Shown here in pieces: positions 382 to 53,097 of a DNA stretch of 64,000 nt (positions are counted from its first letter, which is position 1; each line of letters opens with the position of its first letter). This DNA comes from Phoronis australis (lineage: Eukaryota > Animalia > Phoronida). The notes below the pieces were generated by a model. That model was not told the origin of the DNA, did no database searches, and saw only the letters and a list, made by a program, of their open reading frames with translations. The stretch covers positions 1,401-65,400 of the forward strand of contig NMRA01000532.1 in the NCBI GenBank assembly GCA_002633005.1, read 5' to 3'. Both the position numbers and the translations under genes were made by a program.

Positions 382-654
382 ACAGATGAACTGAGGTTCA
401 GGGAGTTCTTTTACACGTACCTTTAGTGCTAATCATACTTAGAAGGTTTCACAGGCAAGTTTGGCCGAATGCCAAGAGCCCAAATTTACAAATTTTGACA
501 TTCAAATGTTCACACTTTGCGTAGTGTCCACATTTAATTTCTACACCTGCATGAGACTTTCATAAAAGTGTGTCTTTGGGAGTCCCAGTTTGCCAAAAAT
601 TTTAGCTCCAAAAATACTTATTTTGGTAACTCGTAATTTCATGTAAATCCATTT

Positions 655-2467
655 CACAGTTCACGACAACCACCCGAAGTAGTTTGGCAGATGGGCGAGG
701 AATTCATGGTCATAACCGCTAATTCTGTCATCATGTTGGGGAATTCCAGGTCGTTCTGGTTGATCACTGTGCTATGTACTGTGCTGTCCGCATATCAACT
801 GTGCATGTATCGGCGACTGTCCATTGATCGAAGATTGCCGTTTAATCTCTGAGTATCGGCTGTTCGTGTGTTGATGCCTTGGGTCAACTGGTCGCATATC
901 AACCATCCACTTCCCGAGGAATGTCTATACATTGAAGATCGCCATCTGCTGTCTACATATCGAACATTCACGTATCAAAGGAGCATTCAGATATCGAGGA
1001 TTGGTATCTTCTGTCCACAAACTGATTGTTCACGCATCAATGTCTGCCATCGGCTGTTCACATATCGATTGTCCACACACTGAGTAGCATCCCACATCAC
1101 GGATTGCCATCTGTCGTTCGCATGTCAACCTTCCACACATAGAGGAACGTCCACATATCCAGGATTGCCATCGACTGTTTGTGTATCGGCTACCCACACA
1201 TTGTGGAACTTCCAGACATTCGAGGATTGCCCTCTTCTGTCCGTATGTTGACCATCCACATATCGAGAACTGTTCATGTATCAAAGATTGCCATCTTCTG
1301 TGCACATGTCAACCATCCACACACTGAGAAATGTTCACTTATCAAGGATGACCTTCTACTGTCTACAAACCACCTGTTCACGCAACGATGTCTACCATCA
1401 GCCATTAGCATTTCGATCTTCTTCACATCAAGGAATGTTCACACATCTAGGATTTTCATCTCCCATCCTCCTGCTGACCATAGTTCCATTGATGTTTGCC
1501 CTTGATCATATGCATCTTGACTGTCCCCCCACCGGGATAGTCAATATGCATATGGTCAATGGACTGTATGTATAATGACTGTCCCGGTGGGGGGACAGTC
1601 ATTATGCATACGGTGGATGGCAGGCATCACTGGACACATGATCGGTAGGTGAATGGTAGTTGACGATTCTAGCTGTGTGAATGTTCCACGATGTGTGGAA
1701 GGTTGTTATGCGGATGGCCAATGGTAGATGTTGTTGTGGGAACAGTTGTTTTGTGGCCGGTAGATGGTGAACCTTGATGAGTGGATGTTTATCGGTGTGA
1801 AGGTGGTTGATATGTGTACGAAAGATGGCGATCCTTGATGCATGGACATTTCTTGGTATGGGGAAGGTTGACATATAGATAGTAGATGGTAATGCTTGAA
1901 TGAATGGATGTTCCACGATATGTGGGCTGTCGATATGCAAACAGTTGAAGGTAATCTTGGATATGGGATGTTCCACTATGCGTGGATGGTTGACATGTGT
2001 ACAACAGATGACAATCTTTGATGCTAGGATGTTTCTTGGTGTTTGGAGGATCGTCATGCGAACAGTTGATGACAGCCATTGATGTGCAAACAGTCGGTTT
2101 GTGGACAGAAGATGACGACCCTCGATGTGTGGATGCAGGCCTTGATATGTGAATGATCGGTATGTAGATGTTAGATGGTGAACTTTGATGCATGGATGTT
2201 CCTCGATGTGTGAATGGTTGACATGCGAACAGTTGATATCAGGTGTCGATGTTCGAACAGTTTTTATTTGGAGATTAGACGGAAGGCTTTGATGTATGGA
2301 CACTCTTTGATGCCTGCACAGTTGATATAGGGATTCCATAATACACTGCAAAGGGATCAGATGAATTGATCGAGAATTCACCAATAAGATGGCCGAATTA
2401 GCTCTAAGTGAACAGAACTTCCTGCTGATTCAGTCTCAGTACTTCTGCTGGCTACGTCGTAAACTAT
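655..2467. repeat. 1.8-kb imperfect palindrome (~900-bp arms, 4-nt loop at 1558-1561); arms largely built of ~61-bp tandem units
   Basis: Arms align colinearly from apex to ends (gctaattctgtcatcatgttggggaattc vs rc gctaattcggccatcttattggtgaattc); gattgcc-like anchor recurs at 1102, 1163, 1225, 1286 and 1347. Confidence 0.9.
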
Positions 2468-5400
2468 TAATATGTTTAACATCCATGTATCGAGAAATAT
2501 CCAAACTATTGTTTGTGCATTAATGATCGTGCACTATGATTGTTTGAAAAATGGATAAGGTCACTGGCAATTTGACAGTTTGGGTTAACAGCCATCCCCG
2601 ATTATCTCAAAAATTCTCCTTAGGCATTGATGCGCGGCTTAACTTGCATGTCACCGTGATGGGCACTTATCTTGTAGTTAATTTGGTGATTATCAGATCT
2701 TTTCAGCATGATGCCCTGTGGTAGTGTCGTCTGCTCACCATCCGTGTAACCTGGATCACCATCTGCAGACCTTCACCTATACTGATGCAAGTGTTAATGA
2801 GTTTCAAGACCGTGAGTTGTGTTATGACAATGTTGTTACTGTATAAAAAAGAACTGAAGGTGTTCAGGGACACCAATCCCTAGTTTCAGCCATTCACTCT
2901 AGTAAAGAGGATGATGGGATTGCAGATGGCTATATGTACCGTCAACAATCTGACTTCCAGCATCAGCACATATGATTGACAGCTATCGATGGGCAAGGTA
3001 ATATGAATGTATGAGGACATGTTTAGGATGAGTGTGACAATATGCCGAGGCATGAATGTGATGATGACGACAACGATGTACGTGAGTGTGTGCATTATGA
3101 GTTTTTTGCATGACGGGATGTCAATCAAGTTAAATAGGTAAAAGTCTTCCTCGTGAAAATGGTAAAACTTTCCTGTCAATTTTTTTCACGACAGGATGTC
3201 CATCAGGTTAAAGGGGTAAAATCTTCCCCCATGAAAAGCTGAAACTTTCGTTGAGTTTTCTCAACAGAGGATGTTACTTGAGGGGAGATTAGCGCCACTG
3301 CTACTGAACTGAAGAAACAGCGGATCATTAAATTCAGTCTTGCAAACTGGGTAAAGTCTTGCCTGGTGGGTTGATGACAATTCTTTAAGTGTCAGTGGTT
3401 AATGAATCCAGAACGTGTGACGAATTAATTGTGAAATGATATGAAACTGAAGAACCCATGATATGCTGTGACTAAATTGAAACCATTGAGTGACAAAGCT
3501 AATTGCGAAAAATAAATGAACCCAAAACATACGAAAATTAATGAACCAAGGAAGTGCGAGTTAATGACAAAAACCTGAAAAAGAGTGTAAACCAAACGAA
3601 ACTATGAAATATGAAAAATTGATGGACCAATGAAATGGGAAACTTTAATGAATTCATAAATTATCACAAGGCTTAGAAGGTGTAACGAACCAACTGAACT
3701 TGTAAAATGAGAGGGTGACATATAAAGACATGCTGGTAAAAACCCACTTGAAAAAGCAAGAACCCATAAAATGTTGAGTGTGATGAATAAAATGGGAGAA
3801 ATAACTGAATCCACAGAATGTGAGAATTTATGAATGAACAAAATGCTACTCAAACAAACCTGTGGTTGCCCAAATTAAACGCAAGCGATAAATCTGTAAA
3901 ATGCTATGACTAAATAAAACCACTGAGAGCAATGAAGGAAAATGTGAAAAACAAATGGAGGAAATACCAGGGTATATTCACACACTGTAAATAAGTTAAG
4001 TCTGGACTGTTGAGTAAAGGTACTAAATTCTTTGCCATCAATATGTTTCCAGGTAAAAGAGAAATTCCTTACCCCAAGGAAATTCGAGGAGATGAAAGCA
4101 AACAAAGTGGGCTGGAACAGCGACTAGTTATTGAATTTGTAAAATCTGAAAAATTAAAGAAAAGTGCAAAAACAGGATGATCTTGTAATGAAATGAGAAA
4201 ATTAAGAAAACCACAATAGACATTGAAAAATTTACAAAATGTGTATAAAATGATCGCTAAAAAACAAAAAGTAAAGTACAGTCATGGATGAGTGAAGGGA
4301 TTAATTGCTAAAAAGTCATGAAACAGGTGTTCAGTGATGAACTTGAAATTATGCAAAAATTACCAATTATTGAATTACTAGGTCATAAGGCAATGATCCC
4401 ACCAAAATGAAATGGCAAAATGCGATGGACGTAATGAACACACCAAATAGATGAACTTGCAAAATGTGGTATTACTGATGCACAAGGACACCTATATGCT
4501 GGCAAAAACCAGTTAATATAAGAAAAATTTGCTAAGCTAATGAAACTTTAATTAATGGAACGAGCGAATGATGACTATGTAAAACGAGTCCTGTAGCAGG
4601 ACTGATAGACCAACAAAGGTGCAGAGAGGAATTGTTTGATAAAAGAACAGTCATCTGATCAGCTATATCTGGAATACATGAGAATAATAACTCGGTGAGA
4701 GAAAGCTTATGCATATGGTAGACAGTGCTTGATGAGATCCATTGTCGACATGCCAAGTTTAGGTAAATACTATCAAGGAAAGCAGGAGATACAACACAGA
4801 TAATCAATAAAAGGAACAGGACCCCTTGGAAAATCTCAAGAACTGAAAGTCTACGAAAAACAATTGGCAAAATTCAGATGGTAGTACTTTATGCAACCTT
4901 ATTCATACACCAAATTTCAAAAAATCCCATGTTTCCGTAATGCAGCAAACTGAGAAATAGATGTCACTGCACCATCTCGCATCACTCAAACAATAGGCCT
5001 TGAGCTAATACAGTAACCTGGAGTGTGAATTTCATGTCGATCTAGTAGGTGAAAAAGTGACCTGTAGCACGAGTGTCATACAAACATAGGTGCAGAAAGG
5101 AATTGGTTAATAACAGAGCAGTCATCTGAATATTGAGTATTTCAATAACAGTAAGTTGAATTAAAACTAATACTGCAACGCATATATCACTTCATGAGGT
5201 CCAGCCATCTGCCTAACTTCAGAAAAATACAGCAATGCCACATCTTGGCAATGTGAAATATCGAAAAACGGCCATCACATGCCATCTTGAATTCCAACCA
5301 AAAACAGTTGAGCTTGAGCTATGAACAAGATGCATGTCAACTGGATAAGAAATTCGACCTGTTGCATGATGGTAGTATGATAGAGCAACACTAAGGCTTT

Positions 5401-8400
5401 GTCAATAAAAGAACAATGATCTAAAGAGAAGAGCAAATTTGAGTGAGAAGCATAAGATGCAGTGCTTGACAAAATTGTTTACATATTAATCATTTTGAGA
5501 AAGATTCATCGAGGGATGCCAGCATGAAAAGTCATTCAACTGAACAGCTGTACCCGAAAAATCCTGAATAACGCGAGATCTGTTGTTGCAAAAGCTAGAT
5601 AGACTATTTATGATAGTCTGCTCTTGAAGAGATTCATCCACATTTACCAACTTTCAAAGAATTTTTTTTCTCCCATTGATGATAGAGCTGTAGCTTCACC
5701 AATCAAAATATCCAAAACAATTGGCCTTTAACTTTGAATGAGACAGTTGTGCGTAATTACATGTTAAGTGGATAAGAAATGCTGTCTGTATCATGCAAAC
5801 AAAGATAAGAAGGTACTCATCCTCTCTTTAATATGTTTGACTAGAGACATCTAATTTATGTTTGGCATATGTGCCGTAATGAACATAGACCATGCGTCAG
5901 GGAAGGTCTGTTATCAGAAATAAATAGGATAGATGGATTTGGGAAAATGTCATTTATTATGATGCAACAGTGAAAATAATGCAAAATACAGTCTTTGAAA
6001 AGAAGGGCATAAAAAATAATAAACAAGAGATGTTTGGGACAGTGCAGGCTCATCTGAGACTAATAGGTTTTTAAGGTGCTGCTCTGAATGGATTTGCCTT
6101 GTGTTATCAACTGTTTCGGACGTTCGGGGTGCCGAAGTGTAGTACATTTCTATACATACATTTTAACATGTAGCAGAGAAGTGTAATAAACCAATAGAAC
6201 TTGCAAGTCTGTTTTTGACTTGCAAAACCAGCTATTTGAGAGATCTGACAACCATTTCAAGGCTATTGTGTGTGAGTTGAATTTTTCGAGACCACTGAAA
6301 AGTTTGCGAAACCAATGCTGAAAAAGTGAACTACACCATTGAACTTAGACGTGGAATGAAGGCATCGAAATAGCCTTCACTTGGAACCGAATCATAAACT
6401 GAGAATCTAGTATACTACGTTCGAACAGTATGTAACATTAACTTTCAACTTGCATAAAGGTTCTTATGGATGAGTACTGTGCGAATTCAAGGCAGATACG
6501 GATCGTATCATTGAGACAATCATTTCTAGCTGTTCAGAAGCAGTAAAAATGAAACTGACTGAAACTGAGTAATCTCAACTGAGACTTGACTGTGGACAAA
6601 ACTACAGCACATACTGCCTAATGTCTTCTCAAGTTTGTAGTATGGACGAGTTGCTGTTCAAACAAATTGTAAGACTGCGTAGACATCAGTCCCACCCATG
6701 TATACAGTGCCACATCCCCAAGTTGTGATAATGAAAATCACCAGGCAAGAACTTTGCAAAAACCAAACCATGAACTGATGAGTTTATACCTGTCATATTT
6801 GAGTGCGCGTGATGCGAAGGTTGTCGAGATGGGTAATAAAAAGTGCAGCACTTGGGTAAGAGAAACCACCGAAAAAGGGGGTAGTAATGGGTGGGAAAAA
6901 ATGAAGAGAGATTAAACTCAAATGCAAGTGCTGCTAATGCGAAGGAATGACAGGAAACATATGGTTACTGAGAACAAAAGGCACGTGATAATCATCAACC
7001 TATAGGTGCCAGAAGCGACCAAACTCGAGGCACAAGACAGAAACAACCAATAGTGAGCCTGGGAAAGAAATGTCCTAGTGCGCTGTGTGTGTGTGCAAAA
7101 GAGCCATATGCGAATCTACACAAGCGATTAATGGACCAGTCCGGAAGCAGGAAAAAGGGGTTCATATTCTCACATTAATATGTTTAACGAGTGAAACAGT
7201 ATTTACATTTGAAGTATGTCTCGAAAATAAAAGGTGTGTCGCAAGCTGTTTCCAGAGATAAAAGGAGACCTGATATAAAAATTGTAAAATTATGGAATTC
7301 ATTGTCACTGACAAGTAATTTACCATGTGTTGCGTTTGTGAGAAAAAAAAGTGTGATTCTTTGTTGAATTGCGCCAAACACCATTGTATAATATGTTGGT
7401 GCAACAAAATAGGGACTTGACCACTGCTTGTCACAATGAACTAAAGGCATTATTAATTGAACAAAACAATGCATCAAGTTAATGGAGTTTTGTGAAATGC
7501 AATAATTGAATGTGTCTGTAGAGTGTCATTAAATAAACAGAGAAATAAATGACCTGTAAAATACTAAATATAATTGAATTCATGAAATTGAGGGAAATAA
7601 AATTCTGCAATCTCATTGATAAACAAGCGTTTCAAGTGGTAAAGAATCCATGAAATGCATCAAGTAAATGGCGTCTTGAGCTACAGCAAGATAATGAAAC
7701 TGAAATTACATGAATTAATGAACTCTCAAATGTGTAAAATGCAGCTATCGAAGGAATGTATTTAATGATAAATCATTAAAAGTTGAGAAATTATTGGTTT
7801 GTTAAAAGCAGTTTTGGAGTACGGAACAAATTAATAATCCCTCAAAATATCACAATCATTAAGCTGTTGTAGTATGACAGAACCCGTAAAATGAACTCAA
7901 TATAGTGTGAAGAAGCAAAATTCTAACTATAAGTGAATCTATAAAATGTAAAAAACAAGTGACCCACAAAAGACGAGTTAATAAACAAGTACAACATGAG
8001 GGTAACCGTAAACGTGAGGGTAACCAAAGTCTCGGAAATTTAAATCGTAAGATGCATCATGGAGTGAAGAAGTAGTGCATCAATTTCCGTGAAGTACGAC
8101 AATTTAATGACTCTGTAGACTGTCATGAAATGAACACAGAAATAAATAACCTGTAAAATTTCAAAAATAAGGAACTGGAACTTGGGAATTAATGAACCCC
8201 TAATCTGTCGGGGATAAAGAAACATTTCATGTGGTAAAGGACCAAGATATGCAACAAATCAATAGGGACCTGAGGTACTGCCAAGTGAATGATATTGGGA
8301 AATTTCTTTGAATAAATGAATCTTCAAAACGTGTTGAATGAACAAGCTGACAACTGATTGAGCCCATCAAATGCATTGAATTACTGAATTCTTAAAATTT

Positions 8401-9302
8401 ATGAAATGAACAATTAAGTGCAAAGTAATGAATTAATACAGCCAGAATGTGGTACATTGAAAGTAAATTGAAATTGGATTAAATAAACAAGTGAAAAAAG
8501 GAAAGTAGGGATGGTGAATGAGCAGGTGAAAACAAACCAAATAGCGAATTGACTTTAAATTCAGCTCAAGGAAACACGTTGATCAAACGTGGCTATCAAA
8601 AACCATAGCCTTCTTTACATCAGTATTCTTTCAAGGAACTGACAGACACAGCTCTGGCTAAAACTAAAGTTCATTCACTGTCCTGAGGCTTAAGGGCAAT
8701 GCAGCATTTTTTTCTGCGAGAAGTCATCTGCTAGCATTTGATTCGGTTTACATTTATTTTATGCTGCATCGAATGGTGGTTCCTTTTTTCACAAACTATA
8801 AAATTATGGAATTCTTTGTTGTCGCTGACAATTATCATTGTGTCTCCATTATGTGAGTGAAGCAAGTTGCGTTTCTTGGTTGGATTGAGTCATACACCAG
8901 TGTATAACATGCTGAAACAACACAATGTGTGATTTTGTGTACACAACAAGTTATAAGAGAAATCTTAAATGTTAAGCGAATGAAAAATAGAGACAGCTCA
9001 TTGAACCAATCAAATGCATTGAATTACTGAATTCTGAAAACTTCTAAAATTAACAATTAAGTGCAAAGTCAAAAATTAATACAGCCAGAACATAGTACAT
9101 TGAAAGTAAATTAAATTAATCGAAAGTGCAAAATAAACATGTGAAAAAAGGAAAGTAGGGATGGTGAATGACCAGGTGACAAAAGATGAATAGCAAATTG
9201 ACTTTAAATTCAGCCCAAGGAAACATGTTGACCAAACATGGCTATCAAAACTGTAGCCTTATTTACATCAGTATTCTTCAAAGGAACTGACAGACTCACC
9301 TG

Positions 9303-9636
9303 GGCCCGGTCTCCAATCTTTTTACTCGAAATGGAACTCGAAATTAGGTTTGGCATTTCTACACTACTTTTGGGCAAACTCAAGATAAGTGTCTATTATT
9401 CTATGCTCGAGTACACAATAACTTACGTAGATAATTTATTGACGTTAGTTCACATTTTGTAAACCCAATATTAAAGCAATTAAAGAAATTTCGAGTTTTT
9501 ACTCGAGTTTGCATAAACTACTATATATTCGAGCACAATCTGACAACCAATTATCTTAAGTTTGCACAAAAGGAGCAGAGAAATTGCCAAAAATAGTTTC
9601 AAGTTCGTTTCGAGTACAAAGATTAGAGACCGGGCC
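9303..9636. mobile_element. MITE, PIF/Harbinger-like (~60-bp TIR GGCCCGGTCTC.AATCTTT.TACTCGAAA, CWG target)
   Basis: TIRs at both ends; flanked by CTG/CAG; empty site ctctggttaaaac present in the paralogous module at ~50211. Confidence 0.85.
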
Positions 9637-10055
9637 CAGGTTAAAACTAAATTCATTCACTGTCCTGAGGCTTAAGGGCATGCAGCATTTTTTTCAATAC
9701 TCTATTGGGAGAAGTGATTTGGTTGGGTTTACAATTATTTTATGCTGCATCAAGTGCTGGTTCCTTTTTTCACAAATTGTAAAATTATGGAATTCAGTGT
9801 TATCACTGACAATTGCCATTTTGTCTCCATTATATGAGGAAAGCAACTTGTGTTTCTTGGTTGGATTGTGCCATACACCAGACTGAGTGTATAACATGCT
9901 GAAACAGCACAATGAGTGATTTTGTGTACACCACAAGTTATAAGAGTGATCTTAACAAACCAAAGAATGTAATGAAATTAGAAAGGAGTAATGCTTCATG
10001 AATAGAACAAATAAGTGCATTGAATTAATGGAGCTGTGTGAAATGGCACAAAGGA

Positions 10056-10265
10056 CCTCTGATTCGTCGATTCAATCGAGGCCTCTGATTGGTCGATTGA
10101 ATCGAGGCCTCTGATTGGTCGATTGAATCGAGGCCTCTGATTGGTCGGTTGAATCGAGGCCTCTGATTGGTCGATTCAATCGAGGCCTCTGATTGGTCGG
10201 TTGAATCGAGGCCTCTGATTGGTCGATTCAATCGAGGCCTCTGATTGGTCGATTGAATCGAGGCC
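10056..10265. repeat. 26-bp minisatellite (cctctgattggtcg[a/g]tt[c/g]aatcgagg), ~8 units
   Basis: Direct tandem units. Confidence 0.97.
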
Positions 10266-10683
10266 AGTTGAATCAGATGAATGAAGGTAAAGAATTGTAC
10301 TTCAAATGAATTAATGACAGTGTTTCATTTTTATGTGCCTATATAAACATATACATATCATATGGGCGTCGAGTGTCTGCTACTATATCTCCTAAGCCGC
10401 TAGCACGATCTTTATGAGATTTGGGGGATGTGTTTCTGTGAAGCTGACGACAGATATGACGACAAGTTTTGGACAGATCCAGTCACAGCTGTACTCCTTA
10501 GAAATAATTCTCTTTTTACCATTTGCGTCTGTACCTTTGGGGTTGCTTGTCGGATTTTCATATAATTTCACAAACAAGTATGGGGGAGTTGGCAAGCTCT
10601 TCCCACCTGCAAACGGGTTTGACAAATTTTGTAGTACCTAATGCTTACCACCCTAGGAAGCATACTGTTTGCGATGCAGTCGT

Positions 10684-11207: not shown

Positions 11208-11307
11208 AGGATATGTGCGGCAAGTTTACCTTTGCTGCACCAAGCTATTCTGTTCTGGAGAGTGCTGGCACGCTAGAAGTGGATGTGTTGTTTCACCGCA
11301 AGAAAAT
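11208..11307 (+). CDS. SLC8A: NCX exon: start of CBD1 ([32 protein letters not shown])
   Basis: cttatag acceptor, gtgagt donor; peptide matches Calx-beta strands A-B (NCX1 FFEQGTYQCLENCGTV). Confidence 0.85.
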
Positions 11308-14300
11308 GTGAGTGTTTATAAGTGATCTTAGAGCTCGTGAGGGTTCCTAAAAATTCAGTGTTACCGTGATTTGGTCCGCAAAGCGTATCTCTACTATCTT
11401 AGTTGTTGTGGACATTTTTATTCCACTGTGGTTTCCTCAGTCGATAATGTTCCCACTGTATTGTTGGTCTTCAGCACAGTTTTTGTAATCGATGTAGGAT
11501 TCGTGATAATTTTGAATGGTACCTCATAAGCTTTTCAGTTATCCTTTCAGAATTGTATAATATTATGTTGTATCCTGAACTTATCGAGTCAAACTTCTTC
11601 TGACCTATCTAACGTCTTCATGGCACTGAACAAGAAAATCTATAATATGTGAGATGAAATTATTAATAAAAAACAAACGAAATGTTGACTTTTGCATGTG
11701 GAAATCAATTTGTTTTAAATTTTGTTTTTCAGATCCAAGTCCACTTTAAAAGTTGCTGTGAGTAGTCTTTAAGTTCTAATTGTTGAAAAGACAAGTAATT
11801 TTCTCTAGTTTAGAATACCGTACTTGCACTGGCTCAAAAATACTCGATTGAGACACTGTATATATGTTGCTGCTCTTGAACAATTTTTTCAATCCAGATT
11901 TTTATTTCCAATGTTTTACAACTTGATGAATCCAGGATTAAGTAATTGTGTGCAGACCAACTAAATCCGGTAATGTTTTTCACAGTTACTACCCTTACTA
12001 AATTAATACGGTAACCAACAGTTACAAAACTGTTAAAACCCAAGTTCCTGGTTATAGCATCCTTTGTTATGTGAAGAGCATTAATTATAATGGGGCTTTT
12101 GCATTTCTGCTTATACTGTTGAGTTCAGGTTATAACTTTACAAGTGCTTTCTAAACCCACTCACAGAGGTGTAGAACGGAGTGTTGTAACCCTTTGGTGG
12201 TATGGGACATTTGTAAAAAACAAAATTTTTAGTCTCCTAAAACTACAGTACATTACTGTGTCCTGTGGTATGGAGTTATGGTATGCTCGGGGTAACAATG
12301 GAAGTTATTTTACCCCCAAGTTATTTTCCTTTTCTCAGAATGGTGGAACTACCATTGCCAACAACAACACTGACGAAAAGGAAACCACTCTAACAGAAGT
12401 GACACCTATGGACAGGGAACTGGAAGACATTATCACAGGAGTTGTCTCAGTTGATTTTGAGACACGCGAAGGAACCGCTAAGATGGACAAAGATTTCAAA
12501 TTTGCTCAAGGAAAATTGGTAAGCTCAGTTTCAATTCCAGTGCAATAATTTATCGTATTATTTTGGAAATTAATCATTCAATCCGAATGCATTGTCAAGT
12601 TCAAATTTGAATAAATCAATTTAACTGCAATCACTTGAAAATTGTCTGATATCATTTTTGGCTTTAGTAATGGACTTACCCAGAGTATGCAAGTGATATC
12701 TTTATACTAAACATGGAACTTGAGAGATCAGTGAAATGCGTTATTAGCTGGACACTCAGGTCTCAGTTGTGCAATGCTCCAATCTATGTTTCATGAAACA
12801 TCCAGAAAACAACTGAGAAACCTGCATGTTAGGCAAACCGATGCAATGTTTTTCTGGATGATGCTTTCATTTTTATGTGTCCCCCCAGGCTTTATATTGC
12901 CGTCATAACCTCTGTTTGGGCATCTGGTGTAGGCTGCTGTATCTCCTAAATTCCTTGCCCGGTTTTCATGAGATTCAGTAGAGTCGACGTGTTCCTTTGA
13001 AGCTAACTGCAGACAAGTTTCGGACTGAACCGAATGCTGCAGTTACTGCTTAGTAGCAGATTTGGTTTTTTAACTTTGCTTCTGTTTCTACGAAGTTCCT
13101 TGACAGCTTTTTTTTCAAAAAATGGCAAATAGGTTTCGATTGAAACACCAGCAGCCTTCGAATTGTGAATGCATTTGACGATTTTCAACCACTGTCGGAC
13201 ATCTTAATTTATTTTTAGTCTGCTTCTCTATTTGCCAAATCCCTTGAAGGTCATGATTGTGAAGTTTGGAAGATATATTCTTATTGAGGAGAGCACTTCT
13301 GACATTGATTTTTCGACAGGTATTGCTACTGTGGTGTCCCCTAGTGGCCATTTTTTTGCTTTGCTTCTGCCTCAGTATCTACTAAGTTTGTGGATGGACC
13401 CGAGTATTGTGCTGTTTCCTTGTGGAAATTATGATTTTCTTTACATCTGCCTCAGTATTTTCCAACTTCCTTCTATGGAACTTGGTGTAATAGAGCATAT
13501 GTGCTCCTACACTCCTTATTCTGAAAATTGTATCTCGCGTAATGGTTCCAGATTTTAGTTATATCTTATACATGGATGGTAGTATGTTCCCAGTTTTGGA
13601 TGGATATAAACTATTCTGTGCTCCTAGTGACCAATTTTTGATTACTTTTACCTGTGTCTGTGGCATTTGCTTCTATATGTGCCAAAGTGCTTGAAGGATC
13701 ATTATGAAAATTGACGGGTGTGTTCCTACTGAGAAGACTGACTTTGATATTCAGATGGTCCTATCTATTGTGGCAGTCCGTAGGTGCATTTATTTCATCT
13801 GTGGCTATATTTCCTTTATCCTTTGTGGGATGTCCGTGGCAAGTCTTTCCCAGGAATGTGAGAACAACTTTTTACTTTTGGACATATCTGTGCCCCCTAG
13901 TGGCAGTTTGATTTTTTACCACGGCCTGTTTTATTTGACGGATTTTCTGGAATTACAGAGACAACAGCACCTTTTCAACTTTTGAGAGATTTGGTTATTC
14001 TGTGCCACTCAGTGGCCATTTTTAGATTTTTTATTTTATTATTCATTATTTATACATCAATTACCTAAAAAACCACTGAGTCACTGATCAGTCTATTTAA
14101 TCATGCTTTCATTGTCCATTAATTATCACCACGTACCTAAAAACCACAGCCATTGATCTACCTACTGAGTCATTTTTTCATCATTCACTAATTATCCACC
14201 ACTTATACCTAACAAACCACTCATCTGTCTACTCAATCATCCTTTCATTATTCACTAAGTATCCTCCACTTAACTAACAAACCACTCATCTGTCTACTCA

Positions 14301-17300
14301 ATCATCCTCTCATTATTCACTAAGTATCCTCCACTTAACTAACAAACCACTCATCTGTCTACTCAATCATCCTTTCATTATTCACTAAGTATCCTCCACT
14401 TAACTAACAAACCACTCATCTGTCTACTCAATCATCCTCTCATTATTCACTAAGTATCCACCACTTATAACTAACAAACCACTCATCTGTCTACTCAATC
14501 ATCCTCTCATTATTCACTAAGTATCCACCACTTATAACTAACAAACCACTCATCTGTCTACTCACCTACTTTCATTGGCCATTGGCTCAAAAATACTCGC
14601 TAAACTCATTGAGGCACTGTAAATATGTTGCTGCTCTTGAACGTTTTTTTTTTTCAATCCAAAGTTTTACTTCCAATGTTTTACAAACCACTGAGTCACT
14701 GATCTGTCTTTTCAATCATGCTGTCCTTATCCATTAATTCCCATCACTGACCTATCATCCTGTCATTACCCATTATCAAATTACGTAACAAACTCTTACT
14801 AGATATTACTTTCTTGATTCTCTTGTGTTTGAAGACTGTTGTTTTTTGCCATCTTATGATTTTAGAGAATGTGAGATTTTTTTATGTAAATTTGTAATTT
14901 TACTTACAGTTAAGTAACTATGTAAGTAAAAGTATGCATAACCTTTAAAATTTCGGTAAGATTAGAGATTACTCAACTTCCATTTTCCTTCTGAATAATG
15001 TGATTTTGAAGAGATAATTGAGACTCATTTTAGATGTAAAATATTTTTCGTTTCACGTATATCGCTTTAAGGCAAATGTCCTAAAGAGCCAGTCACATGC
15101 TGTTAAAAGACGTCAAGTAAATGCAACTATTTTTGTTGAATCTCGTACTCTCTTCTACTCATTAAGAGATCCTGTAATATGTCATTTAATTGTTGTTTCT
15201 ATGGATGAGTTTTGTGATCAGAGAGATTCCACTGTTTTAGATTTTCCACGAGGAAGAATTCTGTAAAACCATCTCCATACCCATAGTGGCTGATCACCAG
15301 TGGGAAGGAGACAATGAGTTTTACGTTATTTTGAAAAACCCACAAGGTGACTCGGGCCTTGGGGACCCCAGTGTTACACGCGTCCTGATTATTGATGATG
15401 ACGGTAGGTGCAGACATGGTTTGAAGAGATCGCTTGATCGGCTTGGGTATGAGCAACTTCAAATTTGGCAAGCCAAGTGATTTTTATCAAAATAACTTTT
15501 TAGCTGCCGTAGTTGTGTTGGGCACCAATTGGTGCATTATACTGGCAGTGAGACTCGTAAAACAGATGGAGAGAAATTTTAGTTTTTTAAGTTGCTCAGG
15601 CTTGCTGATTAAGTGACTTGTTTGTTATGAGTTTGTGTGTGTTTTCAACGATACCACATTTGTTCATTTTAGGTATTTGCAGAGCACGAGTATAGGAAGA
15701 CAATTTCGGTTCCGATTATCAACGATTTGAATTTCCATAATAATGTTGAGTTCTACGTTATATTAAAAAATCCCGATGGGGACGCGGGTATTGGCGACCC
15801 AAGCATCACCCGTTGCACAATAGTTGATGATGATGGTAAGATAGTCCCCAGTTTTGCACTCCTCTATCCAACTTTTCGCTGTTTTGCCTGTGTGTTTCAC
15901 CTCTATGCCTTCCCGGGAGTTTCTCTTCACTGTTTTAAATGATTCAGCCCGTGCCTTTGCATACACTGAGCTTTAAATGCACTCTCCAGGTGTCACTCCT
16001 CAGCAATGGTCATAAGATAATCCAATGATTTGGACTTTTGTTACTAATACATAATGTCTGTTTTCTCTCCTCTATGCTTAGTTCTAAGGAGTGACCCAGG
16101 GATACCCACTGTAATTTCGCTCACACACAGTTAACCCAAGGGAGTTGACCACAAACAATATAACTTTTACTGTTGCTGTGTTTTATCTCACATATTAAAA
16201 TACAGAAAGCTGCTCATCTTATATATGTTTGTAAGTGAGATTGCCAAATTCTGTTTCGCTGGAGTGTCAAATGTATTTATAAGTTGTTTATTTTTGCCAC
16301 ATTTTACTTTGGGAAAATGAAAAATGTGGACTACACTTAATCTAATCTAACTTGAACAGATCTCTGTAAAAATTGTATCACCAATCACATTTGACAAACT
16401 TAAATACTCGTAAGACGTGTTTTGCGTGACTACCTCGGTCTTTACTGAATTCTTTCCCATCGCACTAGTTGCTACATCCTAACGCATGCTCCTCAAGCCA
16501 GTGAGCTGCGAAAATAGTCACTGGAGAACATCTTCACTCAGTGAAGGTCACATTTTATTGAGCGATGAAACTAACAATGAGATGTCACACTGCCGTTATT
16601 CCGTTTTGCAACATTCTTGCTGTCTCCACTGCTAGCCTATCTGACAGCACTACAGTAGTATAGCTCAGGCTTTTGCTGGTGTTGGAAGGTAGAATGCACA
16701 AAAACAAAATTAATGTAAGGTGTACTCAACATAGTAGAACTCGCCCAATAAAACTAGCTCAGCACACACAAGTGTGAGACCCTCAGCAGAGACTAGCTGT
16801 ATACAACAATGTGATGATAGACAGCACAGTTTTTGGAGAGCGTAGTTTGATTTCAGAATGAAGCTCATCTTTAGCAATCCTTTGGTAAAGTAATTTCTGT
16901 ATCCTCATTTAACACACCCCCTTCCACACAGTGCAACGTCCTACACACATCCTAGCTTTCATTTCCTTTCTTTTAGTCACGCTCTCAAAACTCAAGGGTA
17001 ATAATCCTTTCTATAGTTATTGAGTACATAGCATGTGCTTTTAAGACCTAGTAGTCATTGGTATAGTCTTGGTGTTACATGTGACAGGGACGGATATGAT
17101 TAGTTTAAGGATGGGGGCGTCACTAATATCTCTATGGTGCATCCCGTCATTATCGTCTGTGTGAAATGATCCCTCAGAGTCAACTATGTGGAGTAACCCC
17201 CGTCATCTACTCTCAACCACGAGGCTATTTCAGTCACTGAGTTTAGTTTTAGAATATGCAACTGCATAAGGCCAAAAAGCGTAAGTGATTCTGGTCTTTT

Positions 17301-20300
17301 TTGCAAACCGTTTCCATGGTGAGGTATTTTTTCTTGCTTGTTCATAATTTTAAAAGGAAAATGCACCTGAGGTTAAACCAAAATGACGAGGGATTTTTGT
17401 TAATTTTACCCATTGTTTTGTAAATCATTGTCTTCAAAACCTTGCTTGTTCTTGCTGACTGGCTTTTGTGCATCTTTTTAAAAAAGCACAAGACCAGTAG
17501 GCTGACATTGATGGGGCAAGCAATTTTTTTCTTAGTCGAAGAGTACTGGTCTCAAAGTGAGTCTGAGTAACGACCAGAACCAACCAATGCTTTTTTGGCC
17601 TAAAATCAGATACGATTGTGGGAGTAGTGAGTTAATCCGTCCCTGTTCACTTTGCTATATAGTTGTATCTGGGTTACCATAGTAACTTTGCTATTCAATT
17701 CTAGATGTATATAGCTGAAACTCGCTAAGCATTGATGTGTAGAGTTTGATTAGAATACATTTTAGCACTTGCTTGTTAGATTTTATTGAATGATGTGTTG
17801 TGATTAAGGCGTATTTAGTTATTTTAACTAAAATGTTATTGGTGTGATGTGTAGGTGACACCAGCTTGCAAGTTTTAGTAAAATGGACAAGACTGATATA
17901 GATCTGTCATTATCTTGCAAAAATCGCTACATGTAAACAATGCACTTACTGTGCATTTGGAATTATAATTAATGTTTTAGTCTCATTTTCTTAAATAACA
18001 CCAGTGGGATCATATGTTAGATTCTGTTGACTCTAAACTGATTCTGCATTTCAATACATTTTTCAGATACACTTTTATGCGCCTACGATATATGGCGTCA
18101 TCCCCATCCATCCGTCCTTAAGGCGTCCGCTTCTGTATCTCCAAAACCCCTTCATGGATTTTGTGAAATTTTGCAGTCATGCTTGTGTCATGAATGAGAC
18201 AACACAAATGAATTGTTTTGACAGATCTGACTACTGCTGTGCCTCCTAATGGCAATTTTATTTTTTACGTTTGTCTCAGTCTGTCAATTAAAGATCTTTC
18301 CTTGACGAATTTCCATCTGTGACGAATTCAACATAGTCTGCACCACTTAGTGGCCATTTTACTGTGGCACCCCGTAGTGGCTGTTTTTGCTAAGACCCCT
18401 GCAGGATATTTGTTAAATTTGGCAAGTGTATTTCTATGGACGTGACAACGACGACAACTTTCGGAGGTAATTGCAGCAACAGTTGTACTTCATCCCTGGT
18501 GGTAATTTTAGTTTTTCACTATCTTTTGAATATTCAAAATTCCTTGATTAATTTTCATGAAATTTGGCCATAAGTTTACTTTTTTGGATAAATTTGACGC
18601 AAATAGTATGCCACCTACTAGCCATTTTTATTATTTTTTTCAAATTTCATTTTGGTGTCTGCCTTTCTATCTCCAAACCACTAAGAATTGATAATGAAAA
18701 TTTATTTGGCAATTGTGTTTCTTCTGGAAAGTTCCTGGCAAAACATGATGTTTGGACAGACTTACTGATTTGGTGCCCTCTATTGACAATTTTGTTATTT
18801 TTGCCTCAGTGGTTCCATATCTACCATGTACCTCAATAGATAGTCTTGAAATATAAATGATGCGGATTTTGTGTCAAATTTAACTACTGTGGAATCTCCT
18901 ACAGGCAATGCTTGTCTTTGTGTTTGCCTTAATATCTATCAAGTTCTGTGATGCATGTTCATGAAATTTGGCTAATAAGTTACTATCATGAACACATCAC
19001 AAATCCTGTTGCAGACGGATTTGACCTACATTGCCCCCCTACCGGCCTTTTTATTGTTTTTTTTTTGTCTGTTCTTTGTTGTCCTCCCCATAATCTTCCA
19101 AACTTTGTGGAGAATCATGATGAAAAGTGACAGGTGTGTTCCTATTAAGGAAAGCATTGCTGACTTCTTTTGCACCCTATAGGGGTTATTGTTTTAAACT
19201 TACTGGCATTGCTCCCTCTGGTGGGAATGTTTAAAATAGTAACTATCTCTTGTATCTGCTCTGTGTGTGATGCAAGCAGTGGGTACTTATTAATTTTTGC
19301 TTTGTTTACATTCAAAAAGATTTTAAAAGCCAGTGCAGGTACAAACATCAAAAACTGATTAAAACTGTGCTGGATTAGTTGTAGTGAATGATCTACTTAT
19401 CACCCTGAGTATGACAAAGATGGCACATTGATCACTTGTGAAAATATTGGGTACATCTAAGCTGTTTGACGTTGACTTTTACCTTGTCCTGCAGTCTGTC
19501 ACAGCCATTGAGAAAGAGCAAGGCTTATATGTTTGGAAGATTTACTCAGATTTATTCTGCTTCTTCCGTACTTGGTAATGGAGTAGCCTTTATACAGTCA
19601 TATAGTTTTCATAAATTCAATACCTAACAAGCCTTTGGGACCTTCTTTTGCAACACAAATTTGCACTTCTTTCACTGCGACAATGTCCATAGTTTTAATT
19701 TCCTGTGATTGTGTTTTCCTGTCAATGAAATGCAAGCACTCAGATGACCTTTTAACTTTTTCGCGTACATGCATGTTGACCTTTGACCTGCGAACGTCAC
19801 AGTAATGACACCGCAACTGCATGTGAGTGCTGGATCAATTCACATAGAATGTAGCTATCCACTTTTTTGATGAGTATTTAGTTCACGGAATGATTCCATA
19901 TTCACAAGACTAATGTGCATAAGCCATAACCTTTTGTTCAGACACCTGGGGCTGAAACATTTCAATACTAATTTAGTTTCCATTGTTTTATTTCACCAAC
20001 TTACCGCATTCCTATGTGTTTTTAAACTCTTTTTCAGAACCTGGGGAGTTCACTTTTGAAAAATCTCATTTGTACGCTGACCCCAGCAATGGGGTCGCTA
20101 CGGCAACTGTGATGCGTCAGAAAGGCTGTGATGGGACTGTTACTATAGAGTTCTCAACAATGTAAGTTTCTTCAAACACTTTAACTTCGGATTGTTTAGG
20201 ATAATTTGAATATGATGAAATTTTTAAGATATGGAGTAATCATTTTGAAGTAGAACAAAATGACACATTTCCTTTCAAGGTCAGTCAGTGTGAAGTAATT

Positions 20301-23300
20301 GCCTCTATTGGTGGAGAACTTTTAACTTATAACTGGCAATTTACATTGTGCTATCATCTGAGGTATCCTGTTGGGGCTGAAAGGAAAACATCTTGGTAAT
20401 CTTCTATTTTTGTGGTTAGGTGTTATTACTTCAGTGTTGAAAATCCTTTATTCACTCACTTTAGAAATTTGTTCACAATTTTTGATTCTTAGAATTTAAG
20501 GAAAATATGCCTTGTAGTTAAATGAAAACCAGTGGCTCGGTTGTTTATTTTTGCTAATTGTGTTTCCACCAACAGTGATGGTCTGGCTAAAGGGGGTCCG
20601 TCAGATAGTGAGGAGGCCGACTACGTAGCAAGTGGCGGTATTTTGGAGTTTAAGCACGGGGAGACCAGCAAAGAAATCAGCGTCCAGTTGAATAAAGCAC
20701 TTACTACAAAGGTATAATGAGGAGTAGTATTGAGAAAATATAACGAGATAAGGAAGGTGTAAGGATGGGTAATAAATGGAGGTCCTCTGATAGTGATGGA
20801 ACTTGAAGTAACAGGAATTACGTATTTTAAACAAATGAGTACCTTTTGCTTATTACAAAAATATCACAAACTGAGTGGTATTATTTGTTATTTGAGCTTG
20901 ATTAAAGTTTTAGTTTTCAGAGGAAACTATAAGCTGCTAGATATAAAAATTTGTGTTTGCGAATTGCGATTTTTCCCCGTAGCATTGGCTGTATGCAAGT
21001 CGACTCCTTAACAAATGATGTGAAGTGTGCAAGAACATGGAATACATTTTAAATTCTTAGAGAGGCTTCATTGTTTTGTTTTCAGGGCTTCAAGAACTTT
21101 ATCGTTGCATTGAGGAACCCAAGCTTAGGAGCAAAAATTGGAGAGCACAGCGCCACAGTGGTCAATCTTACACAAGGTGGGATATGGTGATGGGCAGTTT
21201 GTGTTTTGGAGCTTTGTTTCTTGCTTTACATTTAAGAAATCCAAATTGGATCACTTTGTTTCTTGCTTTACAATTAAGAAATCCAAAATGGATCACTTTG
21301 TTTCTTGCTTTACATTTAAGAAATCCAAAATGGATCACTACAGCTATAACCACGTCTAATGAAAATGAATATTGTCGGAAAGACAACTAATTGAAGTTGA
21401 ATCTCATTAAGTCAAATTAACATTTTCTGTAGAAGTGACGTGTATTTGATAAGTGACTTTACGGGGGAGGTGCAGGCCCTCTACTGACATGACAAAAAAT
21501 GTCATCGTTGGCATCTTTCAAAGCTTTGTAGCTTTTGAAAATCTCGTCTAAGTGGCAAATATGTATTTAAAGTACATTGTTTTACGCCACCAAATTTTGT
21601 GATTTTTCAGTGTCTGCTATGAATTTGTTCAATTAGGTGTGCTACTTCTTAACTGTACGTCTTGAGTTTGCATGAAATTGTCTACTATTCCAGATGAAAT
21701 AGGCGACCGCATTGCTGAAATATTGGACGATGACGAAGACGAAAAAATCTCTTGGGGGGAGCAGTTCAGGAAGTATGTATTTTCAGTTATTATGTTATTC
21801 CATGTGTTATTTTATTTTACGTTATTCCAAGTGTTATTTTATTTTATGTTATTCTAAGTGTTATTTACATTTATTTATTTCAAGTGTTATTTTATTTTAC
21901 ATTATTCCAAGTGTTATTTTATTTTACATTTTTCCAAGTGTTACTTTTTTGAGTTCAGCTATTTTTAAAAAGTAGACAGTGTACGTGTTTGCACAGCTTT
22001 TTCACGTACGACAAATTGAAACCAGGCACATATTAACTACCACTGAAATTCTAACAGTTACGAGCGGTGTTATGTTGCTGTATCAGCACATGCTTTGGTA
22101 CTGTCAAGCGACTTGACAATAGTAAACCCAGTAAGTCACCGACTGCCTCCCGTACAGTATTGATAACCATAAACATACTGACTTTCTCACTTACAGTATC
22201 ACTACAGCCCAGACATCGATAATCTCGCCTGTATAAATAATTACAATTCCACACCGACTGCACAATTAGGGTACCAATCTCGGCGACAAACGCACATTTG
22301 CAGCACAATTTCACATTTTATTCTCAGTACAGTTGACACAGTGACTATACGATCATTTTTCAAAATTGTAACTTACACCTGTCCCACTTAATACCAATTA
22401 CGTTAGCTCACCACATAGCTTGGTCATTTTTCCTGTTCATCTTTAGGTATTACAGCGTAATAAATACTCTGGAGGTTGGTGTAAATAGGCCAATAGGTTA
22501 TAAATGATATGTTAGTACATGGCCATTTTAAAGCAGTTTCGGGATGTCTAACTGAAAATGGCAACTGTAGTAAGACCGAACATTAACTGCCATATTATAA
22601 TAGGAATGAGAATTATGGTTATGGGAGTGCCTGTAATGAGTCAGTGTACTGATATTATAATTATTATAATTTCAAATAATGCAAATGGTGTTTGTGCTTG
22701 TTCAGTTCCATGAAGATTGAGGCAGACGAGGACGAGGATGGGAACGAGATACCCCTTAAGTGGTACGACTATGCGCTGCACTTCGTCATGTTTGCATGGA
22801 AAATCTTCTTTGCCTTTATTCCACCCACGTGAGTATTACAGGGACGTGCATGAGACGCCTGAGTGTCTTTCCAGTTATGCTATAACTTCCTCTCTTTTAA
22901 TGGCCATGTCAGACTAGAGTGGTAATGTGAATTAATTTCTGATAGTAGGCATCTGTGCATATGTTGGGAGAATGCTACGTTTTTTTCCTTTCTGGTACTC
23001 TGATATTTAGCTAGCCCAGGCATACTTTTGGAATTAGGAGGTCTATCAACCAAAAACGGTTAATTTATAGTAGGTTGTGAAGTGTGTTTGCAAATATGAA
23101 AAACTAAAAACAACATAATGATTAAAATGGGTTTCTAAAACTGCAGACTGACGTGATAATTGACTGTAAATTTAGCTTTTGCTGACACTGTTCATTATTG
23201 GGAACCCTTCAGGACCTGAGAAATTACATATAACTGGGGCCCAAAAATAGCTAGGCTATGGGCCTATACGTGGATAATTTTTCTAATATAGGCTATGCAG

Positions 23301-25980: not shown

Positions 25981-28900
25981 AATGGCACCTGAATTCATGA
26001 CAGTGTTATATGAAGGACCAAAGCTATAATGTCACGTGTCGACCTGGCTGCTCTCCACCCGTCCACATATGAAGCAAACGCCGCTACTTGAATCCATTGT
26101 GTTACGTAGTGACTTCTGTAGAGCCCAGGAATGCTGGACATGGGGAAAATGTCTTCAGAAATAAAAAGAGGTGAACTCTGTGAAGTCTGAAGAATTTCAA
26201 AGATATCTTGTTTGACATTGTAAAACAAGGAACATGGTGGACAAAACTGCTGGCATCTGTGAAAATGTGAAGTATTTATGTGAAGCCAATCAAGGATGAC
26301 AGGCTGTCAGGAGCAGTTTATGAATCAATGCCTGAGACATGTCAACCAATCTTGTCGATTGAAAAACAATGGCCAAGTGTGATTGGTTGATTTTTTAGGG
26401 AAACCAATGTTATTATAAATTCAGCAGGCAGTCGTGTAGGCCCTGCATCAACACGATGTTGAATTTGGCTAGCAATATACAGGTGTTGGGGCCTATTATC
26501 GACTCGCACATAAACATGCAGCTGTGTGCGTGTCACTTGAAAGTAGCTGAATGTGTATTTATATTTTTATAGAAACAATTCTGAATCTCTTAACGATACT
26601 CTTTCCGCTTCATTTCAGTTAAGTTTCGCAAAATGACTTTTACCACAAACCAATTAACTTTAAGCGGATTCCCGAATCATACTCATCCAACACGTTATCA
26701 AAATTACTTAAATTAAATATGAAATTTCCAAAATAACTTTTGATTTTCTGACTGTTCACCAACAAAATGACACGTTTGAAGAAATTGAACTTCATATTTT
26801 ATGAAATACCAATAAAAAGCTTAAATACAAGAAAGGTTGTAATTACCTAATATGGTTCTGTTTCAGTGATGTCTCTTCTAAAATGAAACTCTTTACTGTT
26901 CTAAACTCATGAAAATGACGGAAAGAATATCTTTATACTATGTGTTCTTGACTTGTGGTCACTGTGTTGTATAAAAGGTATAGTACACCCATTGTCGGGA
27001 GCTGGTTACACTTACTCTGTCCCGGCCGTTTAGGCTGTGAAAATTCAAGAGATTCTCCGAAGGATGACTATTTCATCAATCAAAACTTCTATGGCCATCA
27101 TACATCTGTTTATAACCATCGATATTAACGTCTTGTGCTTACTCTAAACTGGTCCTCTTAGCTGGAATTAATGTGGATCTGGGTTCGTATTGTTGACATT
27201 TTACCAAGTGAGATGTATCATTCAATGTACTTATGTAACACTCCCTATTATAACATTAGTTAGCTGTGAAATAGGGTGAATATTTTATGTTGTGAATGGT
27301 TCTTGTATTGTTATTTCATTCCAAGTTTCAGTGGCTTAGTCGAAAGGAACCATGTTTCAATATCTTGAAACCTGAAACATGGCACCTCGAATATGGTTCC
27401 AGGTTGCTAGAACCGATTCATTCCAATCTTAATCTGTGACATTGCAAAGTGAAAACTGCAACCTACAGTGCATATTTCCGGTCTTGTTCATGCTGAAACC
27501 TGCAACTAATCGCACTGATTTTCAATTCATTTAGGCAATAGCATTTAAGCTTGATGTGACATCATTAATACTATTTTGATTAATGGACCATGGTTTATAA
27601 TTTGGTTCTTTCGCAAGTCGGGCACCTTTGAAGGAGGGCGGAAAGGGCCATGGCACAATTGGTCAATATAATCACTTTCTAACAATGAAAACAAACAGAA
27701 TTACAGCAAGCATCCATGGTCCACTTTAAGAGATTTAGGTCACTGGAACCTGTGACATCACCATTAAACCAGGTCAAAGGTTTCAAGAAAATGAAACCGT
27801 TGGAAATATGCTAAGTTGCTGTAACCATGACTGAAAAAACAATACACATATCAAGAATCAATGGTAATATTCAGAATCTCAGCTGGGGCTCACTTCACAA
27901 AGTTGTTTTTGTAAAAGTTTACGTGTCCATTCTGCAGTGATATAGACCAGGGCTTTGTTGATAACCTCCGATTATAACGACAACTTTTCATGCCTGTCTT
28001 GGTCGCTAAGAATTTGTATCCCTGAGGACTAAGGTATGACAAACCTAACTTACTGTGAAATGGCCGCAGACTTTTCCTTGAGGAAGTTTAATAGAATTAC
28101 TTAAATAATATTTAATAATTCATTGTTAGTGATGTGAAGCATACATATATTATTTCAGTTTTAGCACACTAACTCGTCAGGTGTCTGTTTTTTTTTCTGA
28201 TTCGTTGTACAGTAGAGGCTAAATTGCCTTTATTCGAGGCACTTTTACTGATTATGTCTTAACCAGTTTATTGTAACGTATTTTGAATCTCATTTTAGCA
28301 GGGTTGTTTTTACCTTTGGATAATGAGCACAATCATAAATTTGAAAAAACGACCAAAAACTACTGACTCACTGGTGGGTCTAAATGTTTTGTTACTTCGG
28401 CATAGGAAGTGTTGTGATACTGGTACTCCTTTCTGAGATGGGATAGTTTTTGGAAGTCTCCAATGTCAACATTACCCAACAATTCTGTGAAGTCTCAAGT
28501 AGTGGCCAACCGTTCTGTGATAACATTTAATATTGAGAAAGCTTTATTTTTATTTTGTGCTGTAGATACTTGTAAATATCGATTTTAACTCGACAACAGT
28601 GTATTTTACTTTAATTGTAAATTTACGACTATGCTCAGTAGTTTCTCAACAGATATCGCGACTGAACCACTGACACCTGAAAATATTTTTTTCACTTTAT
28701 TTGTATCACCTTGTTTAGTGCTGCTCAGTTCATTTTCTTTTTAGCGATTTTTAATGTTGATAAAATACATTTACAATTTGAACCTTTTATTTCTTATGGC
28801 AACGTTTCTTCTGACAGATTTGAATTGGATGTTAATAGATTGCCAGATAGAATCTTTTCATCAGAAATTCCTTATGTGCCCAGGCAGTACCATCTGTGCA

Positions 28901-52300: not shown

Positions 52301-52711
52301 ATACACCAGTGTATAACATGCTGAAACAACACAATGTGTGATTTTGTGTACACAACAAGTTATAAGAGAAATCTTAAATGTTAAGCGAATGAAAAATAGA
52401 GACAGCTCATTGAACCAATCAAATGCATTGAATTACTGAATTCTGAAAACTTCTAAAATTAACAATTAAGTGCAAAGTCAAAAATTAATACAGCCAGAAC
52501 ATAGTACATTGAAAGTAAATTAAATTAATCGAAAGTGCAAAATAAACATGTGAAAAAAGGAAAGTAGGGATGGTGAATGACCAGGTGACAAAAGATGAAT
52601 AGCAAATTGACTTTAAATTCAGCCCAAGGAAACATGTTGACCAAACATGGCTATCAAAACTGTAGCCTTATTTACATCAGTATTCTTCAAAGGAACTGAC
52701 AGACTCACCTG

Positions 52712-53097
52712 GGCCCGGTCTCCAATCTTTTTACTCGAAATGGAACTCGAAATTAGGTTTGGCATTTCTACACTACTTTTGGGCAAACTCAAGATAAGTG
52801 TCTATTATTCTATGCTCGAGTACACAATAACTTACGTAGATAATTTATTGACGTTAGTTCACATTTTGTAAACCCAATATTAAAGCAATTAAAGAAATTT
52901 CGAGTTTTTACTCGAGTTTGTAGGACGAATAAAAGGGTCTTCAAGGGCAAACTTGAACTAGGAACTCCTATGCATAAACTACTATATATTCGAGCACAAT
53001 CCGACAACCAATTATCTTAAGTTTGCACAAAAGGAGCAGAGAAATTGCCAAAAATAGTTTCAAGTTCGTTTCGAGTACAAAGATTAGAGACCGGGCC
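52712..53097. mobile_element. Same MITE insertion in repeat copy 2 (52 bp longer)
   Basis: Identical TIRs and insertion site to 9303-9636. Confidence 0.85.

Follow-up and report, generated by a model that had tools for sequence, protein, structure and literature searches.

Among animals, the best-known genes dedicated to long-hairpin RNAs are those of Drosophila, whose hpRNAs are rich in G.U pairs; edited inverted repeats outside Drosophila are usually taken as accidents of young transposons. Sea-urchin foldback elements, which Liebermann is said to have described in 1983, reportedly carry long modular inverted repeats. An hpRNA is defined by an output of 21-22 nt siRNAs, by its dependence on Dicer, mutants of which lose the siRNAs and accumulate the precursor, and by a target gene that it matches in antisense and derives from (PMC10317233). 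A discrete transcript that is capped and often spliced is a further mark of the class. The locus described here resembles the hpRNAs portrayed in that source (hp-CG4068 and hp-tHMG), which are long inverted repeats on one transcript, with internal or local duplications and several copies, and which show uneven RNA-seq coverage within the duplex arms. Its long, non-coding inverted arms with a tandem-repeat domain recall foldback transposons such as Tetris (PMC4079207). With non-autonomous Helentrons (DINE-1, HINE) it shares non-coding sequence, multiple copies, internal tandem repeats and a proposed single-stranded intermediate (PMC4067079), and with ADAR-edited animal inverted repeats a repeat-derived dsRNA and an A>G excess on the transcribed strand (PMC9989829). 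Titles and the beginnings of abstracts, with thin coverage of subscription journals, yielded no description of such an element, and the family may already be named in Repbase or Dfam.

The analysis covered one stretch of 64,000 nucleotides from Phoronis australis (contig NMRA01000532.1, positions 1,401 to 65,400, forward strand), called the window below; all coordinates are positions within it. Two copies of the hairpin, A and B, were delimited as follows.

718-1557, + strand: left arm of hairpin copy A (self-blastn, pairing count, RNA fold), with weak pairing outward to ~655
1558-1561, + strand: terminal loop of copy A, 4 nt (alignment of the arms)
1562-2402, + strand: right arm of copy A (self-blastn, pairing count, RNA fold), with weak pairing to ~2467
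800-1480, mirrored in the right arm, + strand: degenerate 61-bp units of 15+18+28 nt, some of 43 bp (periodicity, unit alignment)
41557-43241, + strand: hairpin copy B (self-blastn), with 37 substitutions and 0 indels relative to copy A

The stretch 718-2402 matches its own reverse complement at 73% identity (blastn), and 41557-43241 does likewise, which bears out the second palindrome copy of the original prediction, as does the placement of the 4-nt loop for a loop of that size at the centre. The stem beside this loop contains an uninterrupted run of 26 pairs, which only one other run in the hairpin equals or approaches. The palindrome is about 1.7 kb long and its arms are, as predicted, diverged and in register: they differ by 26%, keep a single register and are separated by 3 indels. 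Arms of ~900 bp had been proposed; clear pairing holds for ~840 bp of each arm, 87% of which is paired when G.U is included, whereas the outer 655-717 pairs weakly (30/63 Watson-Crick). Under neutral scoring, in which every mismatch is penalised alike, the inner 799 pairs of copy A comprise 590 Watson-Crick, 102 G.U, 31 A.C and 76 other pairs. As RNA, the + strand is predicted to fold at -1093 kcal/mol and the - strand at -864. When 41068-43900 is folded, pairing between ~41518 and 43281 departs from its register by no more than 3 nt, and the + strand RNA would form a rod predicted at ~850-890 base pairs.

The arms had been described as ~61-bp units made of three ~20-nt subunits; the 61-bp period stands, whereas the subunits do not, since the recurring motif spacing inside the unit is 15, 18 and 28 nt. 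One 18-nt piece is missing from several units, and its absence is mirrored in both arms. The unit alignment covered ~800-1480 plus its mirror, leaving out the innermost ~77 bp. Arm-to-arm identity is 74% in register versus at most 44% out of register, indicating that the units had diverged before the inversion. It is proposed that a 61-bp minisatellite diverged and was then duplicated in inverted order. A zinc-finger or other coding repeat was rejected as an account of the units (61-bp period; arm ORFs without a Pfam match). So was an HDV-like or viroid-like RNA as an account of the hairpin, which contains no ribozyme and is genomic and multi-copy. A simple hammerhead descriptor found no site, and an Rfam scan of the window gave no match at the gathering score; at E<=1 it returned only four generic microRNA-hairpin matches at the apex, far below the cut-off.

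The hairpin is part of a much larger repeat, three copies of which fall in the window together with the gene that probably hosts the first of them.

1-108, + strand: duplicate of the arm segment ~716-823, beside an N gap
384-10265, + strand: giant non-coding repeat, copy A, starting at an assembly gap and probably within an intron of the NCX gene (self-blast)
10056-10265, + strand: 26-bp array of 8 CCAAT-containing, partly palindromic units, closing copy A
~11210 to a stop near 25980, + strand: 3' half of a sodium/calcium exchanger (NCX) gene, used as host context and strand control
41226-54096, + strand: giant repeat, copy B; the sequence it has in common with further relatives extends upstream to 41096 or beyond, and an N lies at 41067
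53529-54096, + strand: 26-bp array of ~22 units as in copy A, closing copy B
54090-64000, continuing past the window, - strand: giant repeat, copy C, tail to tail with copy B; its hairpin would fall past the window end

The repeat measures 10-13 kb, with the hairpin near one end; 3' of the hairpin come A-rich repeats of ~600-650 bp and then the 26-bp CCAAT array. Copies A and B both begin at assembly Ns, which obscure their 5' ends. Duplications span N gaps at 1-108 versus 716-823 and at 32139-32837 versus 32839-33517; they are likely uncollapsed haplotypes, and the first may equally be a further copy. Assembly joints with such duplications make the element boundaries at Ns unreliable. No Pfam domain was found in 8 element ORFs, those of the arms included; that negative covers these 8 ORFs, and short or broken coding remnants may be present in the element. 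The 26-bp arrays are homogeneous and possibly represent protein-binding termini or a promoter array. At the opposite end of the element, near 41103, inspection by eye shows an inverted sequence that resembles the core of the 26-bp unit but is one base shorter. Copies A and B also contain a 344-bp imperfect palindrome with GC-rich inverted ends (9298-9641; ~52712-53100 in B) that looks like an inserted MITE. Copies B and C together form a tail-to-tail inverted repeat at 44032-64000, with ~10 kb per arm, 85-95% identity and a centre at ~54090. A 145-bp block 5' of the hairpin (41096-41240) is common to transcribed relatives that differ on both its sides, which makes it, from sequence comparison, a candidate conserved promoter or 5' element.

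Summed contig depth, which is not a copy number, averaged 237 over 16 hairpin bins and 98 over 14 others, and was 7-12 in the majority of single-copy bins. The family thus seems to have tens of members, and similarity of at least 88% is retained by more of them in the hairpin than in the flanks. Within the window, the hairpin has no matches of at least 150 nt besides its copies. Pattern scans with the apex gave 34 metagenome and 3 viral loci, which were dismissed as chance (best alignment of the 37 to copy B, E 0.62), and a scan with the 26-bp unit pattern gave 0 viral loci.

This arrangement bears on the possibility that the palindrome is an old foldback DNA transposon of the Tetris or sea-urchin type that lost its middle, is carried along as a passenger of a larger repeat and undergoes the editing that any inverted repeat would once transcribed. 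In each long arm a domain of tandem repeats is bordered on its outer and its inner side by less repetitive sequence, a layout that resembles that of foldback elements (PMC4079207). Unlike foldback elements, however, the Phoronis palindrome has neither a middle domain nor an 8-10 bp target duplication, and instead of forming the termini its arms lie within a larger unit. Direct repeats of at least 7 bp are absent from its flanks, two 6-mers being the only ones, and the same flanks accompany the palindrome in both copies, which speaks against the free-standing foldback element that had been considered at the outset. The arms are also far more diverged than those of foldback elements, yet in register and with a pairing bias on one strand. 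By our own reasoning, a structure acting as double-stranded DNA predicts equal numbers of G.U and A.C, and such symmetric divergence is rejected at p 5e-10 (102 vs 31). Edited repeats are typically young (PMC9989829), whereas these arms are 26% diverged. As a whole explanation the foldback transposon is thus largely refuted, and we regard it as very improbable.

Copy A probably lies within an NCX intron, in the sense orientation. The original prediction had placed it there on condition that the gene extends upstream; the strand agrees, with exons at ~11210-25980 on the same + strand, whereas NCX 5' exons were not found in the window. A first protein search for NCX exons returned no match and a second, for one exon, returned 3, of which the two named are from sea cucumbers (64% identity). 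The last NCX exon and an expressed tail of ~3 kb occupy 25856-28900 (+ strand). Several further features were seen in and beyond the gene. A 65-bp minisatellite at 14031-14576, within an NCX intron, is strongly C-skewed on the + strand, and at 28989-29200 lies a very high-copy short repeat (summed contig depth ~6300) that is transcribed on both strands, mostly +. A stop-riddled frame at ~38240-38320 (+ strand) has a weak zf-RVT match (E 0.041, below the cut-off) and is probably the tail of a dead non-LTR retrotransposon.

The divergence between the arms is strongly asymmetric. On the + strand of copy A, G.U outnumbers A.C by 102 to 31 (binomial p 4.9e-10), so the bias holds across these inner 799 pairs; it had been predicted from a manual count over the inner 240 bp (29 vs 7), for which a recount gives 29 vs 8. 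The excess is even between the arms (G in the left arm 52, in the right arm 50) and is present in copy B (105 vs 27). An alignment artefact was rejected as its source, because neutral scoring and four strictly ungapped registers of copy A (107 vs 32) give the same result. Removing CpG leaves the bias in place, with 83 G.U versus 28 A.C among pairs not derivable from CpG (p 1.7e-7) and 24 versus 5 among CpG-derivable ones. It is also local: the element body is symmetric (51 vs 53 in 3696 three-copy columns), although its weak transcription where reads mapped limits its value as a control for transcription-linked mutation. Nor does such a bias appear in the inverted pair 9298-9641 (G.U 8 vs A.C 16) or between copies B and C, compared over two stretches of their inverted repeat (30 vs 19 and 18 vs 20). 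Flanking strand asymmetry was dismissed as well, the element body being A-/G-rich on the + strand and the hairpin G-/T-rich.

Insertions and deletions are scarce in the same arms. Arm against arm there are 3 indel events per 221 substitutions, whereas five diverged direct repeats elsewhere in the element have 41 per 303 (p 6e-7), and between copies A and B there are 0 indels per 37 substitutions in the arms versus 24 per 150 elsewhere (p 0.01), the indel controls being AT-richer than the hairpin arms.

The direction of change was inferred from the leave-pair-out majority of the 61-bp units at a 60% threshold, with 168 unresolved aligned positions excluded; a 70% threshold agrees. Polarised changes in copy A are A>G 21 versus T>C 8 and C>T 34 versus G>A 11, and those in copy B are A>G 27 versus T>C 9 and C>T 33 versus G>A 10. 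CpG deamination in double-stranded DNA is expected to be symmetric across strands, and the polarised CpG changes in the arms are C>T 20 versus G>A 5 (p 0.004). Exposed single-stranded DNA has C>T and A>G as its two expected changes. Both are in excess here, and the + strand is the non-template strand. These counts therefore bear on the possibility that no selection is involved and that strand-biased mutation made the pattern, through deamination of the non-template (+) strand during transcription or through ADAR edits copied back by reverse transcription, for which an editing-like signal in the RNA (see below) would also count. Out-of-register pairings of the arms are likewise about 2:1 in favour of G.U over A.C (44:20 and 38:19), showing that the arms are G/T-shifted overall, as a mutational bias would make them. 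The near absence of indels, however, is not predicted by mutation alone, and the element body lacks the asymmetry, so that a mutational bias limited to the transcribed part, the form in which this half of the original prediction could survive, is weakened. Its editing version fares worse: C>T (34) exceeds A>G (21) and a 5'-G is not depleted at A>G sites (6/21 vs 78/205, p 0.48), leaving fixed ADAR editing unsupported as the source of the bias and speaking against the earlier suggestion of editing fixed via an RNA intermediate. Changes seemingly private to the lineage of the window, in a small sample, are 5 G.U versus 4 A.C, which also speaks against a mutational origin. We consider this mutational explanation unlikely.

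If selection on pairing is the cause, as we prefer, it does not appear to act on the two local copies. Differences between A and B fit neutrality (16 Watson-Crick/G.U vs 8 Watson-Crick/A.C; neutral share 0.55, p 0.31), and the one compensatory double change (1114/2004) is not beyond chance, ~0.4 double hits being expected by a hand estimate. Read-versus-copy-B differences with a pairing partner (n=22) fall on non-Watson-Crick sites in 16 cases and end as Watson-Crick or G.U in 19; they derive from 40 listed of 603 differences, 24 of which lie in 41494-43306 and 23 of which were used, with the partner base of copy B assumed. The simplest reading is that pairing is better in the relatives, whereas copies A and B have recently begun to decay, their fresh changes being unbiased (5:4). 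The constraint likely acts on more active relatives in the family rather than on A and B.

Transcription was assessed by mapping three raw RNA-seq runs, carrying the same species label and coming from a single study, on 41068-44667 (3.6 kb), where 396, 324 and 125 reads were placed.

41068-43950, + strand: stretch of ~2.9 kb with + strand family RNA reads, interrupted by a gap in coverage at 41308-41427, neither boundary being sharp

Over the hairpin, 96%, 98% and 88% of the depth comes from reads whose first mate is on the - strand; first mates have this orientation also in the last exon and tail of NCX, a + strand gene, indicating that the RNA is the + strand, the better-folding one. The family is thus transcribed from the + strand in 3/3 runs. 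Expression is low, with a mean hairpin depth of 5-15 in 1.6-1.8 Gb read, lower in mid-arm, and depth falls to ~0-2 at 43948-44547. The RNA features listed include neither a GT-AG joint nor a peak marking a transcript start or end. Most NCX intron bins are near zero and the NCX 3' end reaches only ~6, so weak read-through from that gene does not explain the hairpin signal. Reads at least 99% like the window number 1/396, 1/324 and 0/125, most being below 95%; expression is therefore shown for the family, not for copies A and B, and the RNA comes mostly from other family members or from heavily edited molecules.

These reads carry the excess of A>G that A-to-I editing predicts, at the scale of the whole 3.6-kb stretch, arms and surroundings together. 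Places with A>G versus T>C number 127:56, 117:51 and 94:28 in the three RNA runs, versus 61:66 in DNA contigs (Fisher p 2e-4, 2e-4 and 2e-6); the RNA and DNA runs being different samples, this is a class-level signal rather than per-site proof of editing. A control region gives 7:12, 10:13 and 7:11 (p 0.009, 0.018 and 0.002 versus the hairpin stretch). Among the differences listed, 42288 and 42687 are A>G in RNA only, and both lie at A-U pairs of the stem. The RNA-only excess is likely A-to-I editing, in which case the hairpin RNA is likely double-stranded in cells. ADAR-edited repeats are mainly young and paired by chance (PMC9989829), whereas the Phoronis hairpin is old and contiguous and bears a conserved-pairing signature.

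The RNA profile also helps to weigh a further possibility, namely that the hairpin was selected as + strand single-stranded DNA in a rolling-circle (Helitron/Helentron-like) or similar intermediate, transcription and editing being by-products. The element is large, non-coding and multi-copy and has many internal tandem repeats, like the non-autonomous Helentrons (PMC4067079); the DNA fold (G.T) likewise favours the + strand (-493 vs -430), and the neutral divergence of A and B fits a constraint acting at mobilisation only. The hairpins described for Helitrons and Helentrons, however, are palindromes of 5-20 bp that lie close to the 3' end and are accompanied by short subterminal repeats, unlike the 840-bp arms found here near the other end. 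Elements of this kind are expected to have a short 3' stem-loop with a CTRR end, or else subterminal inverted repeats and a TT target, and to share their ends with an autonomous Rep/helicase partner. No such termini are evident at 10240-10360, after the array of copy A, the 5' ends being in gaps and B fused to C. Most of the RNA depth, moreover, falls on the hairpin and the sequence close to it. We judge this account improbable too.

Taken together, the one-strand G.U bias, the scarcity of indels, the stranded RNA and the A>G excess argue that a + strand duplex is under selection, the alternative to strand-biased mutation in the original prediction. The locus is a real, transcribed and structurally constrained hairpin in a giant repeat, its transcription being established at the level of the family. 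We think it rather probable that it is the hairpin module of a multi-copy 10-13 kb non-coding repeat, giving rise to a + strand RNA rod that is likely edited and whose pairing selection likely maintains, its most likely role being that of a substrate for Dicer in the manner of an hpRNA. After the proposed inverted duplication of the minisatellite, mutations resulting in G.U on the + strand were retained roughly three times more often than the mirror-image changes resulting in A.C, and hardly any indels survived, a pattern that selection on pairing would explain. The ~2.9 kb region with the hairpin is transcribed from that same + strand, and its RNA, to judge from the RNA-only A>G excess, would become double-stranded in cells and A-to-I edited. 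The duplex may then be diced to putative small RNAs acting on the repeat family or on another target, or else the selected rod may serve as a decoy or scaffold instead.

The hairpin thus appears to work like a Drosophila hpRNA in its anatomy and expression: a long inverted repeat folds on one strand, and the folding strand is transcribed in the family (3/3 raw RNA runs). It is not classed as one here, siRNA output, Dicer dependence and target all being putative. Unlike Drosophila hpRNAs, it rides in a 10-13 kb dispersed repeat, and its arms derive from a minisatellite, with no recognised protein-coding parent.

If the interpretation is right, an RNA duplex of kilobase length can be preserved by selection within a mobile element, and in an animal lineage other than that of the flies, and the count of G.U versus A.C, with indel depletion, would be a cheap, annotation-free test for further such loci. 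A broader idea, which we put forward as speculative and on balance doubtful, is that giant non-coding mobile elements of invertebrates encode their own selected kilobase hairpin from an inverted minisatellite, feeding or jamming the host dsRNA machinery as a source of siRNAs or as an ADAR/Dicer decoy. Were this so, Phoronis would have an hpRNA-like system outside the flies, carried by the selfish element itself.
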